From contig NC_045696.1 in the NCBI RefSeq assembly GCF_009834535.1, positions 62,064,001 to 62,128,000 of the forward strand: DNA of 64,000 nt, written 5' to 3'. Every line of letters begins with the position of its first letter. Position 1 is the first letter of the stretch. The position numbers were made by a program, and so were the translations under genes. Origin of the DNA: Camelus ferus (taxonomy: Eukaryota). Under the pieces are notes generated by a model, which did not search any database, was not told the DNA's origin, and saw nothing but the letters and a program-made list of their open reading frames with translations. Shown one piece after another: positions 29,989 through 56,843 of the stretch.

Positions 29989-30153
29989 CTTTATTGGTGA
30001 AATATGAGAGTGAGAAACAAATCCATGGACATTCTCAATTTCTGACAGGTTCTTCTCTGAGACATGAACCAATTCTGGACCTATCACCTCATTAGTGATT
30101 TGTGGAGAAATGTGCTCTTGAGGAGGTGTATCTTCATCCTGATACCGGTATTT
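29989..30153 (-). CDS. DLG1: DLG1 coding exon [11 protein letters not shown]...HISPIK (55 aa)
   Basis: 165 nt, phase 0/0, acceptor tcctatactttacag|AAA with upstream ttaat branch-like motif, donor AAG|gtaaga. Translation matches the recalled DLG1 sequence. Confidence 0.98.
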
Positions 30154-36902: not shown

Positions 36903-37034
36903 GGGGGAAGGGTATATAGCTCAGTGGTAGAGTACGTGCCTAGCACGCATGAGGTCCTGGATTCAGTCCCCAGTACCTCCATTAAATAAACAAATAAATC
37001 CAATCACCCTCCCCCAATTTAAATAAATAAATAA
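36903..37034 (+). mobile_element. tRNA-derived SINE, camelid Vic-1-like
   Basis: Pol III A box TAGCTCAGTGG (36917-36927), B-box-like GGATTCAGTCC (36959-36969), (TAAA)n tail. Confidence 0.85.
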
Positions 37035-38429: not shown

Positions 38430-40658
38430 AGTACTTTGAAGGAAATTTGTAGCTTTAAATGTTTACACTAGGGAAGAAAGTCTAAAAGCAGTGACCTAAG
38501 AATTCACCTCAAGAGGCTACAAAAAGAAGATTAAAGTAAACCCCAAAAAGAAGAGAACGAAGAAAATAATAAAGGACACACAAATAAATGAAGTAGAAAA
38601 CAGACAATTGAGAATATTTCGAAAGTCAAATATCAACAAAATGAATAAACCCTTTTTCTAGACTGATAAAGGAAAAAGAATGCAATCGCCTACATCAAGA
38701 ATTAAAGAGAAATTCTCACTAAAAACACCTATATACTTTAAAAAGACAAGAAAATAATTACGAACAACTTTAGGCCAAATAATTCAACAGGTTACATGAA
38801 ATCAAGAAATTCCTTAGGGAAAAAAAAAAGAAATTCCTTGAAAAATACTTCTTACCACACACAATATTCTGACACAATACGAAAACAGTAAATCTGAGGG
38901 CCCCATATCTATTTAAGAAATTGAATTTGTTATCAAAATTCTTCTACAGAGAAGACTCCAGGCCTAAATGTGACTTCTACCAAACATTTAAGAAAGAAGT
39001 AACATTTTTACACAAATTCTTATAAAAAAGAGAACATTTCCCAACCAGCATAAGACCAGCATAGCCTTAATACTAAACTCTGACAAAGACATTATAGAAG
39101 AAAATGATGAACCAATATCCCTCACGAACACATGCAAAATTCTTTTTAAAAATTAGCAAATTGAATATGAAAGTGATAATCCAAACAACATATCATGACT
39201 AAATAAAATTTATCATGAAGACAAGGTTAGCTTAACATCTGAAAAAAACAGTGAAATTCTCCATGTTAACAGAATAAGAGAAAAACCATACGATCATTTC
39301 AAGACATATGGAAAAAATATGACTCAATTTAACATTAATTCATGATAAAATTCTCGGCAAACCAAAAGTCCAGAACAATCTCAATCCAAAGAGCATATAC
39401 AAAACCCCCACAGCTAACACATCTAATGGTGAAATGCTGAACATTCCCCTCATTAAGATAGGGAACAAAACAGAATTCTCATGCTTCTTATTTCTACCAA
39501 CATTATTGCTGAATATCCTAACCATGGCTAGAAGACAAGTAAAAGAAATAAAAAGCATAAAAGCCAGTAAAGAAGAAATAAAATTGTCTCTATTTACAAA
39601 TGACATGATTGTTTACACTAAATATTTATAAAGAATTTACGAAACTACTAAAACCAATAGTCAAATTTAACAAGGTTGCAGGACACTAGGTTAATCAATC
39701 AAATTGTATTTTTATACCAAAAGCAAATAACTGAAAATCAAAAACTTTCTAAAAATTCCACTTACATCAACACCAAAAAAGATAAAAAATTTAGGAATAA
39801 ATTAATAAAAGATGTCCAAGACACTTCACTGCAAATTATAGAGTACTGCTAAAAGAAATTAAGACCTAAAGAAAGAGAGAGACGTAATATGTTTCTGGGT
39901 TGGAAGACTCAATTGTTAATTTTCTTCAAATAATCTATAGATTCAATGGAATTTCAATAGTAATTCCAGCACTCTTTTTGTAGAAACTGATAAACTGACT
40001 GCAAAATGTTAAAATGTAGATGACTTGGAATAGCCAAACCAAATTTTAAAAAGAACAAAGTTGAAAGGCTTACAATACCTGATGTCAACATAGTGTGGTA
40101 CTGGCTAAAAGGTGGACAGATTTATCAATGGAACAGAATACAGAGTTCGAAAATAAATTCACACATATATGATTCATTCATTTTTGACGAAGTGCAACAG
40201 CAATTCATGAGGGATGGAAAAGGCTTTTCAACAAACGATGCAACAACTGGATATTCATATAGAAAGACACTAACACTGACCCTTACCTCACCTCACATGC
40301 AAATTAATTCAAAATGGACCACAGACCTAAAAGTAAAATCTAAAATCATAAAACTTCTAGAAGAAATGTTCTCCATATAAGAAAAAAATTGCAAACTTTG
40401 GGTAGAAAAAGACTTACTATATAGAACACAAATAACACAATAATAAAAACATCTGACAAACCGGGCTTTATTAAAATGTTTGCTCTTCAAAATCATCAGT
40501 AAGGAAAGTAAAAGGCAAACTACAAAATGAAAGAAAAGATTTGCAATAAATAAATCTGACAAAGGATTCAGATCTGAATATATAAAGATCTTTAAAACTC
40601 AATAGGAAAACAAACAATTCAGGTTTTTAAACTGGGGACAAGTTTATATAACACTTCA

Positions 40659-52334: not shown

Positions 52335-54058
52335 ACAAGCACCTCAAGTGGTAATTTATGATGAATACCAGAGGATCTAAAGTGGTTTAAGAAGTGTTGG
52401 TGTGGTGGTGGTAGTCAAAGTTTACAGAGATTATTAGACAAATTATGAGCAATGGTATGCTACTTTCTTAAAAACTGATTCTATAAGGACAGCATTCTTA
52501 AAACACCTTATAATACCTCATGAGGTATTTAATTTGCCTAAATACAAAAGAAGGAAAAATATTAGTGTTAACTTTATAAAAATATTATTTAAAAAATTAA
52601 AAAACCTTTTCCCAAGATGGGCTTAAACAAGTACACTCGACTTAATGCTATGATATTTCAGAAAGACTCTGAAGCTTAGCAGAAGAAACACTTTAATAAT
52701 AAGCATTCAAGTTAGTTTAAGCAGGTCATATAAATTATTCTGCCTCAGTTTATTTAACTGTCAGCTGAATATTAAATACACTTGCCAACACTTCTTTAAG
52801 ATTCTGCTAAGAATTGAGAATCACATACAATAAATAAACTTTTAAAAATAAAAAGATTGAAAAAACCTTTTCCTAGACATCCTGCTGTGGACACTACCTG
52901 AAAAAAGCAGGCTTAACACTCAAGGGAAAACAAAAATGTAGCTTGAGCTATTTAAACCATACATATGAATTTTACACTGGTTCAGTTTAACAACCAATAA
53001 AAATATTAAAACAAACTCTTAAAAAAAACTGTTCCCATAAGCAGCATATTTTTAATGCACAACCATTCTATGTTATGCTTCATAAGATGTTTCAGAAAAT
53101 TTCTAAAATATCACTAGGAAAATAAGAACTCTCTGACACTGCAAAGAGTTTAAAATGGGGAGAAATGAAAGACTTAGGTGACCAGAAAAGCAATATATTC
53201 TCTAATAAATGAGTGAAAAACACTTTCGGTATAATTTTTTAGTCAATTAGCCATTTGGAGATCTTTTCACATCATCAACTTGAAAGTTTCAGTCCTACAA
53301 AAACCAAGAAAAAGGTTTCATTTAAAACCATACTTCAGAGTAAGTAATTATTCCCCAAATAAATTTTCATTAGAAAGCTCTTCCGGCTTTCAACTTGGTT
53401 TTGAATCACATGCTGTTTTTGATCACAGAAATGAAGTAAAAATACATCACTTCCTTATGTCATTTAATATTTTATATAAAGAAACCAAATCATTTATCTT
53501 TAAGGCAAACTTTACATTTATTTTCTTTCAATAAGTCATATCTCTAATTAATATAACCAATGTTTCACTTACAGGATGTTTCTTTTGTTGTTTGTACTGT
53601 TCAAAAGACTTTTTCCCCTCTACACAATCTAAATACCAACATTTGATTTAGTACCAAAATTACAAAGCTGATGACATGAGTTTAAACATAAAACCTGCCA
53701 TTAATAATTTCTTCCATCAGAATGATATCAGAAGGCATTTCCAGTCCTGCATATCAATGTTGTTTCCTGTATACTGAATTTTCCACAGTAGCAAAACATA
53801 AAAATCAAGTCAATGATCAATCTTTATTAATGGAGAATGACAATATTTTACGTACAGCTTTCATAAAACAATTTTCCCATTACACTTTCACTGTACACAA
53901 GCCAATTGTTTACTTGTATCATACACACAAAAGACAGGGAATTATACCCTGAATTAAAGTCAATCAAACCATTAAATCTGAATTATAATTATTTCTTTGT
54001 TGAAATAACTACTGAATTTTAAAACCAATCTTTTTTTAGAAGTATTATTCAAACCCAT

Positions 54059-54121
54059 CTTACATCCAAAGAAAAAGGATACTGTGCTGTTGGTGCATGC
54101 TACTTTATAGTAGCCTAACAT
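54059..54121 (-). pseudogene. DLG1: Apparent vestigial DLG1 first exon homologous to the palmitoylated PSD-93 N-terminus
   Basis: MLGYYKVACTNSTVSFFFGCK is 13/21 identical without gaps to recalled DLG2 MICHCKVACTNNTLSLMFGCK. It lies on the gene strand upstream of the KYRYQ exon, and the expected donor reads AAG|atgggt. Confidence 0.8.
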
Positions 54122-56843
54122 TAGAAAAAAGCAATCCAAGTTTTTGATGCTAGGAGACATTTTTTCAGACCCTGAGCATTTCAGCTGATCCAAGATTGAA
54201 ATTCCAGAAAAATGCCTTGGTAAATGTTGCTTGCTGACTGTCTTGAACACTTAATTTAGATCCAAGGCACTCTTTAAAAAAATTTATATTAGAATATTGC
54301 ATTTTTCCACCATTTCCAACCGCACAGCAGATACCAGATCAGCTTATTACAAATGGAATTAAAATGCTGTTACTTTTTCTTATACAATAAAACTGTTTCA
54401 AATTCCCAGAATGAGGTTAATCATTCAGCACCACTTTGTAAGGGCCCAGAGCCTTCTAATATCTTTAAAATTTAATCCAGGATCAGATTCATCATAGAAG
54501 CTCCACCCGCTGCAATGTAAGCACTGCTACCTCCTCCTTGAGAATAAGATACAACAGAAGCAGAGCCACTATGCTCAAATATATGCTAGCTGCTTTGGGG
54601 GGAGGGGCAAGATGTTCAGGAAGGGACTTGTTACAGAATTCCATAGATGAGCCCCGAACAACCGGACATGATGCTTTCTTACCAACATGAAACATTCCAT
54701 GCTAATTTAAATATAGTTTAATGGTAAAAACAGTGCCTCAATCATTTATATTTTGTGGTTTGATTCCTCTCTACATCATTCAAGCAATTAAAAAATCAGT
54801 TATCTGGCAAAATTAAACAGAATAATAACTGAATTAAACTCTGACAGTGAAAAAGTTGAGTGAGATAAAAATATTTTTAACACATCAAAATAATTTACAA
54901 TTTGGGGAAATGTTACAGAACCAATTCTGATGTATATCCATACCATGTAGACAGTTTAAAGGCAAAACGTCAAGCAACTTGTTTCCTGATATATCACTGA
55001 TTTATTTGCTCTTTCAAAGATTTTTTTCTGTGCTTTGGATTTTTAATCAATCCGTTAGCAGAAAAGTATCATAACCCAACTACATCTGAAATAACGAATA
55101 AAACACTGTGAAAGTGTTGGTCTCAGAGTATTTCATATTTAAAATCTTGCACGTTACATTTTATGCCATAGCTTCGCTATAATTAAATGGTATTTTTTTT
55201 TAAACTTGAAAGTTGTATTAACCAATGACAGCAAAAAGCTGGATAACAGTGAAAGGGAAACTTTCTTCTTCATCTACAGAATTATCTTGTCTTTCTTCCA
55301 CTATATTTGGGGCTTTCTAAGCACTGTATGTGTACTGCAATTAGAAAATGACCAGGATAGTTGCTAATGAAGTCTGTTGAATTTTACAAAACTAAAGTTA
55401 ACAATTCATGTACTTATATTCAAAGACCTACATCTCTAATTTAATAAACAAAGCTTTGTGTGGAAAAGTATACTGTGCTATATCCCAGAGACAGTGAGCC
55501 AAAAGACAACTCCCTTATCAACAATTACTACTCTTAATTCCAAATCTGCCCAAAGTTACTTTTAATTTTAATTTCCTAAACTATTCCCTATTCTGTCTCA
55601 TTCCTCTTGAGCAATTTTATCAGAAGAGAGAGGAGCTAAAACTAGGTTACATTTCTAAAACAGCACAGAAAATGGCTGGCTGTCCAGTAAAATTACCCTG
55701 ATAAGAAAACGCCTGCAAGTCAAAGTCACATGAACTTTATGAAACTTAAATGAAAGGTCAAGTGTCAAAGGTAACTAGGAAAAGAACAAGTAAACTATGC
55801 TCCTTAAAAGACTATATATAAAAAAATAAATTTACCAAATCAGAACTGAATAGTTCTTAGGATATTTCACTACAGTGCTTCACAGGTCCCACTGATGTTC
55901 TTTCATCTTAAAACTTTCATATTCATGGTTTTAGACATTTTAATTTTAAAAATCCACAAGCACAAATGTGTAACAAGTTTTAATACTGGCATTTATAACA
56001 ACTTATTTACATATATACTATCAGCTAAAATTGGTAGATCTCAAAATACAACTTCTCCAGTTTCTGAACACACGTGGGATTTGTCTCATTAATTATGTAT
56101 TTGTCGTTCTGCACTGGGCCTTAATGAAAATTCAGCAAATTAATTTACGTACACTTCTGTTCACCTAAAAATATATAAGTAAGTACATTACTTTGGCATG
56201 TGTCTCACTAAACAAAATGCCAGGCAAAGTTCAAACACATCTACTCAACCTACCTTTAACATGGTTTAGCTTAAAGGGCTGGCTACACAATAAATGTTAA
56301 CATGTAATATATTCAGGTATAATAATACCATATTATGTTTGTTTTAATTATCATTAGGAATTTATGAGTAGTTCTTGTTCAATTTTTAAACAAAGTGAAT
56401 GAGTTCAAGCTACTTATTTTTGATTAAAATTTATGGCACCTAAAACTGCAGAAAGAATGTGAGAAGTGTGAATTTGGGGCTTTACATGCAAAACTTAATT
56501 TTGACTGTTTTGAAACTGCGCAAATATGACAGGTAAGCACTGAAGTATCTTAGGATTTTTTTGTTTGCTTTTAAATGATGTTGTTTAATAAATCAGTATC
56601 AGAAATACATTCTACAAAAGACTTTCAAACTGCTCAAGGAACATGATATTAGTAGTAATCATAATATCATCAACATTATTAATAACAATTATTTAATAAT
56701 TATCTCCTACTTATCAGGCATTGTATAAAGTGCTTTACAGATGTAAGAAAAATTATCAAATACTTACAAAAAAAGTGGGAAATTAGGCGGCATACTCTTA
56801 CAATGCTATATGGGTTAAAAAAAAAAAAAAAGATTATGTAGGG

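Follow-up and report, generated by a model that had tools for sequence, protein, structure and literature searches.

The window analysed here is a stretch of 64,000 bases from the genome of Camelus ferus (assembly GCF_009834535.1, contig NC_045696.1, positions 62,064,001 to 62,128,000), and it covers part of DLG1, the gene for the scaffold protein SAP97, which is read on the minus strand. The subject of the analysis is a region at 54250-54059 on that strand, which was found to be homologous to an alternative first coding exon of DLG1 and which appears to have decayed in this genome. Positions refer to the window unless another contig is named, a slash within a sequence marks an exon-intron boundary, codons are numbered from a conserved methionine at 54160, and relatives are the 57 proteins of the search described below. 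The features concerned are as follows.

54161..54250, minus strand: in-frame 5' extension of 30 codons, VFKTVSKQHLPRHFSGISILDQLKCSGSEK; mammalian DLG1 models begin here with MFKTV.
54059..54160, minus strand: exon core of 34 codons, from the conserved methionine to the old exon end, MSPSIKNLDCFFLMLGYYKVACTNSTVSFFFGCK against the consensus MSPSIKNLDCFSPMLCHCKVACTNSTISLMFGCK.
54122..54127, minus strand: codons 12-13, TTT CTA, encoding Phe-Leu; Ser12 is found in 56 and Pro13 in all 57 of the relatives.
54107..54115, minus strand: codons 16-18, GGC TAC TAT, encoding Gly-Tyr-Tyr; relatives have Cys-His-Cys, the presumed acylation pair.
54071..54076, minus strand: codons 29-30, TTT TTC, encoding Phe-Phe; Leu29 and Met30 are found in 57 of 57 relatives.
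54053..54058, minus strand: former splice donor, ATGGGT, with A at +1; AAG/ATGGGT in the window against AAG/GT expected.
54058..54066, minus strand: cryptic donor GAT/GTAAGA with the exon end at 54064; joining to exon 2 gives GGA TAA, a stop after 32 codons.
29989..30153, minus strand: DLG1 exon 2, 55 codons, KYRYQDED...HISPIK; intact, with acceptor tttacag/AAA TAC and donor AAG/GTAAGA.
G000:C1:62142658-62142687 (L009:4658-4687), minus strand: 10-codon exon ATG GAT TGC CTG TGC ATT GTA ACC ACA AAG/GTAAGA, encoding MDCLCIVTTK; intact.

A first-pass annotation of the window had described a frame opening at a minus-strand ATG at 54121, ending at 54059 and followed by ATGGGT, with a further in-frame ATG upstream at 54160, and all of this was confirmed in the sequence. 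Positions 54121..54059 encode MLGYYKVACTNSTVSFFFGCK, the next bases (54058-54053) read ATGGGT, and the frame is open upstream too, giving 34 codons (MSPSIKNLDCFFLMLGYYKVACTNSTVSFFFGCK) from the ATG at 54160 up to 54059. The whole homologous exon was identified as 54250-54059 (-), longer than the reading frame first described. Its first codon is GTG (54250-54248), lying immediately after a TAA, and VFKTVSKQHLPRHFSGISILDQLKCSGSEK precedes the methionine at 54160. The individual codons GGC (54115-54113), TAC (54112-54110) and TAT (54109-54107) stand where the relatives have Cys, His and Cys, respectively. The annotation had given GGC and TAT as codons 3 and 5 and ATGGGT as the donor; these readings were found to be as given, with Cys, Cys and GT in the relatives at those places. 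Its placing of the start at 54121, with the cysteines as residues 3 and 5, did not hold. The conserved frame begins at least 13 codons upstream, so the DLG1 cysteines are numbered 16 and 18 from the conserved methionine. The change from Met30 to Phe requires at least two base changes.

The splice signals around the old exon end were examined together with exon 2, which lies on the same strand about 23.9 kb downstream of the decayed exon, a placement syntenic with DLG1. No phase-0 GT donor was found directly after the codons for GCK in the window. The two cryptic donors nearby behave as had been proposed, as was confirmed from the exon and exon 2 sequences: GGAT/GTAAGA leads to GGA TAA and a stop, while ATGG/GTTTGA (exon end 54055) shifts the frame when joined to exon 2.

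Relatives were sought by a protein search with the 47-residue frame as query, with longer proteins allowed, in a collection of 5.8 billion clusters at E <= 10. Among 58 candidates, 57 proteins were identified at this threshold, 51 of which are named DLG1 or discs large homolog 1. They come from a shark (Chiloscyllium), paddlefish, gar, many teleosts, platypus, echidna, five New World monkey genera, Microcebus, Sorex, Equus asinus and Balaenoptera musculus. A block of 34 residues (MSPSIKNLDC and 24 further residues; consensus MSPSIKNLDCFSPMLCHCKVACTNSTISLMFGCK) is present in every one of them, being identical to the consensus in 35, with one difference in 20 and with two in the remaining 2; the window has 8 differences in the same 34 positions. 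These are S12F, P13L, C16G, H17Y, C18Y, I27V, L29F and M30F. The columns P13, C16, H17, L29 and M30 are invariant in the relatives, and S12 and C18 are each conserved in 56. The valine at position 27 of the window is also found in 8 relatives, and residues 1-11 of the window are identical to those of 46. Both cysteines of the CxC motif are retained in 56 of the 57, and the Cys-His-Cys at 16-18 is not found in the window. The ancestral cysteines, as seen in the block, are Cys10, 16, 18, 22 and 33.

The relatives also indicate how the exon is spliced. In 54 of them ...GCK is joined straight to KY(R/K)(Y/H)QD of exon 2. The remaining three (P0002, P0003 and P0006) are open reading frames (ORFs) that read through into the intron and have Val (GTN) after GCK, as has the unnamed ORF P0060, which fits a GT donor in the relatives. 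Because the exon occurs in DLG1 models from shark to mammals, it is taken to be a real and very old first coding exon of one class of DLG1 models; that range puts its age above 400 million years. An ancient DLG1 start exon resembling that of PSD-93 had been put forward in the first-pass annotation, and the 57 relatives bear this out.

Further searches were in agreement with this placement. When the window and the 180 kb upstream of it were searched by tblastn with the whale N-terminus, 64 codons were matched at E 1.2e-27. The best named match was that of the whale, at 82.8% over 64 codons, with Aotus at 75%. An Alu motif gave 0 matches, which speaks only against a primate; both results are compatible with a camelid genome. 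A near-length protein search with the frame of 92 codons gave 4 matches among 4 candidates, the informative ones being two unnamed ORFs (the P0002 cluster and P0060). The window's own version of the block was absent from the collection of 5.8 billion clusters, in which the best match was 72% identical, and a search of metagenomes for orthologous DNA by the codon pattern of MSPSIKNLDC gave 0 matches. An unnamed ORF of 90 residues in the P0002 cluster, P0061, comprises the intact exon with intron read-through and was found on 310 contigs in Logan/ENA, from which it follows that some frequently sequenced host has the intact exon.

The closest named systems are the predicted DLG1 isoforms XP_055977151.1 (Sorex fumeus, X15) and XP_021531799.1 (Aotus nancymaae, X12), which begin with (MFKTVSKQH...SGSEK) followed by the block. 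The window exon has the same place upstream of exon 2, the same frame and the same start methionine, and 26 of the 34 core residues are identical. Unlike these isoforms, it is without Cys16, His17, Cys18, Ser12, Pro13, Leu29, Met30 and the G at donor +1. A variation at one of these positions was also observed in the DLG1 model of the blue whale (P0018, UniRef100_A0A8C0CG26), in which Gly replaces the latter of the two CxC cysteines (MLCHGK), although the model is still spliced to KYRYQDED. In whales and even-toed ungulates, erosion of the motif may go beyond this one species.

A six-frame search of the 2.09-Gb genome with the intact ortholog peptide returned two significant places only, namely the window exon (E 1.2e-9) and G000:C10:40239818-40239922 (L001:1501-1605, minus strand; E 1.0e-11). 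The exon region itself, of 241 bases, is single copy in the assembly. The exon on contig C10 is intact and reads MCPVVKDPDCFTPMICHCKVACTNNTLSLMFGCK/GTAGGA, with a 21-residue part MICHCKVACTNNTLSLMFGCK, and a 54-codon exon of the KYRYQ type follows on the same strand, 162 kb downstream of it. PSD-93alpha2 has been described with 21 residues before KYRYQDED and with exon 2 covering amino acids 22-75, and exon 2 of SAP97alpha as amino acids 11-65, the latter matching the 55 codons in the window (10.1101/2020.10.02.323568). The exon 2 lengths of 54 codons on C10, as in PSD-93alpha2, and of 55 in the window, as in SAP97alpha, identify the C10 exon as the DLG2-like paralog. An identity of 13 in 21 residues to the DLG2 exon, which had been given in the first-pass annotation, was reproduced against this genome's own paralog. 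The absence of an intact vertebrate DLG1 ortholog, together with non-significant similarity to DLG2, had been named there as fatal to the proposal; 57 relatives and a similarity far beyond chance (the two E values above) speak otherwise.

The PSD-93alpha2 exon of DLG2 and the window exon share a cysteine-rich start with these 13 identical residues, and the PSD-93alpha2 exon and the ancestral DLG1 exon are both spliced in phase 0 to the KYRYQDED exon. Unlike the window exon, that of PSD-93alpha2 is intact and belongs to a different gene (contig C10, with a 54-codon exon 2). The window exon is not itself a PSD-93alpha2 exon, its exon 2 having 55 codons and matching the DLG1 type at 100%, and it is the equivalent in DLG1 of the exon from which DLG2 makes PSD-93alpha2. 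Homology with the paralog was found to reach past the published start of PSD-93alpha2, by 13 codons in the upstream direction (MCPVVKDPDCFTP against MSPSIKNLDCFSP of DLG1). An in-frame ATG lies 13 codons before the published MICHC start, and the two extensions show third-position differences (GAT/GAC, TGC/TGT, AAA/AAG). Given this homologous extension with third-position differences, the true N-terminus of the exon class may be longer than the published 21 residues, with the cysteines at 16 and 18 instead of 3 and 5.

The exon was further compared to that of SAP97alpha, for which a 10-residue first exon palmitoylated on Cys3 and Cys5 has been published (10.1101/2020.10.02.323568; PMC6365469). 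A scan of the gene strand for M-x-C-x-C over the window and 180 kb upstream (244 kb) gave 5 matches, only one of which has a phase-0 GT after codon 10. This is the MDCLCIVTTK exon, which reads MDCLCIVTTK/GTAAGATA in its context and lies 24.6 kb upstream of the decayed exon, 14.7 kb past the upper end of the window. Its product equals the first ten residues of PSD-95, MDCLCIVTTKKYR (PMC4035745), and it appears to be the SAP97alpha exon, intact in this genome. The matches inside the window (53799, 40208 and 12418 on the gene strand) were rejected, as they have no phase-0 GT after codon 10, and about 2 matches are expected by chance; the one at 40208 gives the impression of lying in a repeat. Rfam and ARAGORN searches yielded a single element, which is unrelated to the decayed exon. 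It is tRNA-Ala(AGC)-like, lies in the DLG1 intron at 36910-36981 (+), with 44.5 bits for the Rfam tRNA model and a call by ARAGORN, and could be a gene or a tRNA-derived repeat.

As the 10-residue alpha form exists as a separate and intact exon, the decayed exon is not that of the reported palmitoylated alpha-SAP97, to which the first-pass annotation had suggested that it may correspond. The decayed exon, at 34 to 64 codons, is also without the 10-residue Cys3/Cys5 arrangement. The N-terminus of SAP97alpha and PSD-95alpha is like the class of the decayed exon in being encoded by an alternative first exon that takes the place of the L27 (beta) N-terminus and is joined to KYRYQDED; its exon is unlike the decayed one in being separate, much shorter and intact in this genome.

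Taken together, there is good reason to regard 54250-54059 (-) as the ortholog of a conserved alternative first coding exon of DLG1 (SAP97) that is most likely dead in this lineage. With A at donor +1, Cys-His-Cys replaced by Gly-Tyr-Tyr, and cryptic donors that end the frame, the exon cannot supply the N-terminus of a full-length DLG1. At four further changed positions, at most one of the 57 relatives deviates. The proposal that the exon had been disabled, with both cysteines and donor +1 changed and the nearby cryptic donors giving a stop or a frameshift, is hence upheld. In other vertebrates the exon gives DLG1 a cysteine-rich tip and is joined in phase 0 to the exon for KYRYQDED, and by analogy with the DLG2 paralog and from its cysteine content this tip would probably anchor the scaffold to membranes by S-acylation. 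The exon would then have been lost in the lineage, with the visible rest of the locus (exon 2 and the MDCLCIVTTK start exon) intact, and the loss may have been tolerated since the acylation-type MDCLCIVTTK exon and the exon of the DLG2 paralog remain. In having a donor mutation and lost conserved residues beside intact neighbouring exons, the case is like other lineage-specific losses of an alternative exon; it is unlike them in that decay is heavily concentrated in the 3' third of the exon. The event itself is ordinary in kind, the loss of an alternative exon, at an interesting place.

Several observations weigh against a dead exon, the first being the uneven distribution of the changes. The window was compared at the protein level to 11 mammalian sequences (9 named and 2 unnamed) over 64 codons. 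Residue states unique to the window number 7 and all lie in the last 23 codons, with 0 in the first 41 (Fisher p = 0.0004). When every departure from the consensus is counted, 3 of the first 41 codons and 8 of the last 23 are changed (p = 0.012). The 30-codon extension differs from the 11-sequence consensus at 3 positions, each with a state that is present in another species too. The other mammals show the reverse: their first 30 codons differ at 1-8 places, and their last 23 at 0-2. Such clustering is not predicted by uniform neutral decay of the whole exon. Constraint may persist on the 5' part, for example if it serves as a promoter-proximal element, an upstream open reading frame (uORF) or an RNA. 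It is also possible that the 3' part was struck by a clustered burst of changes, many of which, going by the codons, are C-to-T on the sense strand, or that the pattern arose by chance in a small sample.

Furthermore, the frame is still open for 92 codons without stop or frameshift, 28 of which run beyond the old exon end. Words sampled from the 551-base stretch around the exon (53850-54400) also occur in assembled contigs of three RNA runs, taken from two studies, at shares of 0.98, 0.91 and 0.45, from which it follows that the region is transcribed in some form. The Gly at Cys18 of the blue whale counts against a loss unique to this lineage, and as databases list only exons accepted by gene callers, decayed copies elsewhere would be invisible, so that uniqueness of the loss is not claimed. 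The apparent disuse of the exon in this genome is, in addition, read from its sequence only.

The alternative that survives best, which is nevertheless considered unlikely, is that the exon is still transcribed from a promoter of its own as a non-coding or uORF leader, either spliced at GAT/GTAAGA to leave a 32-codon ORF or unspliced, and that it would act in the regulation of DLG1 or yield a short peptide or RNA. None of the window-unique changes falls in the first 41 codons, to which the fully conserved MSPSIKNLDCF belongs, and 7 fall in the last 23, which fits constraint on the 5' part, although the test of constraint covers 64 codons in a comparison at the protein level only. GTAAGA is a good donor core; however, the GTAAG core is also found in the intact paralog exon (in which GGATGCAAG/GT differs; the relatives likewise encode GCK) and is unused by gene models. 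TATAAAT was observed at 54282-54288 (-), 32 bases before the first codon of the frame, as a possible TATA box of such a promoter; it is a weak sign, as its chance occurrence is common at 67% A+T. Presence of the stretch in RNA runs is likewise consistent with a leader. However, the contigs of the two fullest runs cover both flanks, as expected of intron reads from upstream DLG1 promoters, and since the stretch includes about 200 intron bases below the exon and 150 bases above the first codon, the contigs fit unspliced intron RNA at least equally. The RNA contigs show neither use nor disuse of the exon.

That an altered DLG1 N-terminus is still encoded, by means of an AT-AG intron or of an in-frame weak donor (TTG/GTTTTA) 13 codons on, is highly improbable. 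The 28 open codons past the old exon end and a phase-0 GT at the codon GTT of ...KKRL/VL are in its favour. However, GTTTTA is off the donor consensus at +3 to +5, AT-AG introns of the U2 type are extremely rare, no protein with such an N-terminus was found in the searched collection, and the residues lost are those most conserved elsewhere.

The bases themselves were compared with sequencing runs by means of sampled words. Fourteen runs that are DNA, or probably DNA, contain 1.00 of the 56 sampled words of 31 letters from the 551-base stretch, and these words would cover nearly every base of it. The 14 runs carry two organism labels and come from six studies, and nine of them are flagged as possible sources; no third label occurred at a usable share, shares of 0.04 being uninformative. 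That the changes arose as errors in assembly or sequencing, or reflect a rare allele in the animal sequenced, is scarcely credible, as all 56 words recur across these runs, labels and studies and at least nine separate base changes would need to be errors.

With a dead exon thus preferred, the class to which it belonged can be set beside the known forms of SAP97. In the extracts of two sources, SAP97 is described in alpha (10 residues) and beta forms only (10.1101/2020.10.02.323568; PMC6365469). No mention of the exon's peptide words was found in the searched literature text, from which alignments printed as figures would escape, and no experiments on a DLG1 tip of the alpha2 type were found in the literature searched. 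It is proposed, tentatively and with considerable doubt, that a third, cysteine-rich form of DLG1, 'SAP97alpha2', has existed since before the split of sharks and bony vertebrates, that the present lineage is a natural knock-out of it, and that the 5' half of the exon has a surviving second function. The state of the 5' half, including the invariant MSPSIKNLDCF, suggests for this function, for example, a promoter-proximal element, a uORF or a short RNA.

The N-terminal exons of the DLG family decide whether the scaffold is anchored by lipid at the postsynaptic density or held elsewhere through the L27 domain. The gene models reveal a further, extremely conserved and cysteine-rich start exon of DLG1, and thus indicate an apparently uncharacterised isoform of SAP97 in species in which the exon is intact. 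The loss of a single exon in one lineage, as it appears here, would be of modest general interest. It suggests that a mammal can lose such an exon and would provide a natural test of the dispensability of this form, possibly thanks to the MDCLCIVTTK exon and the exon of the DLG2 paralog that remain.

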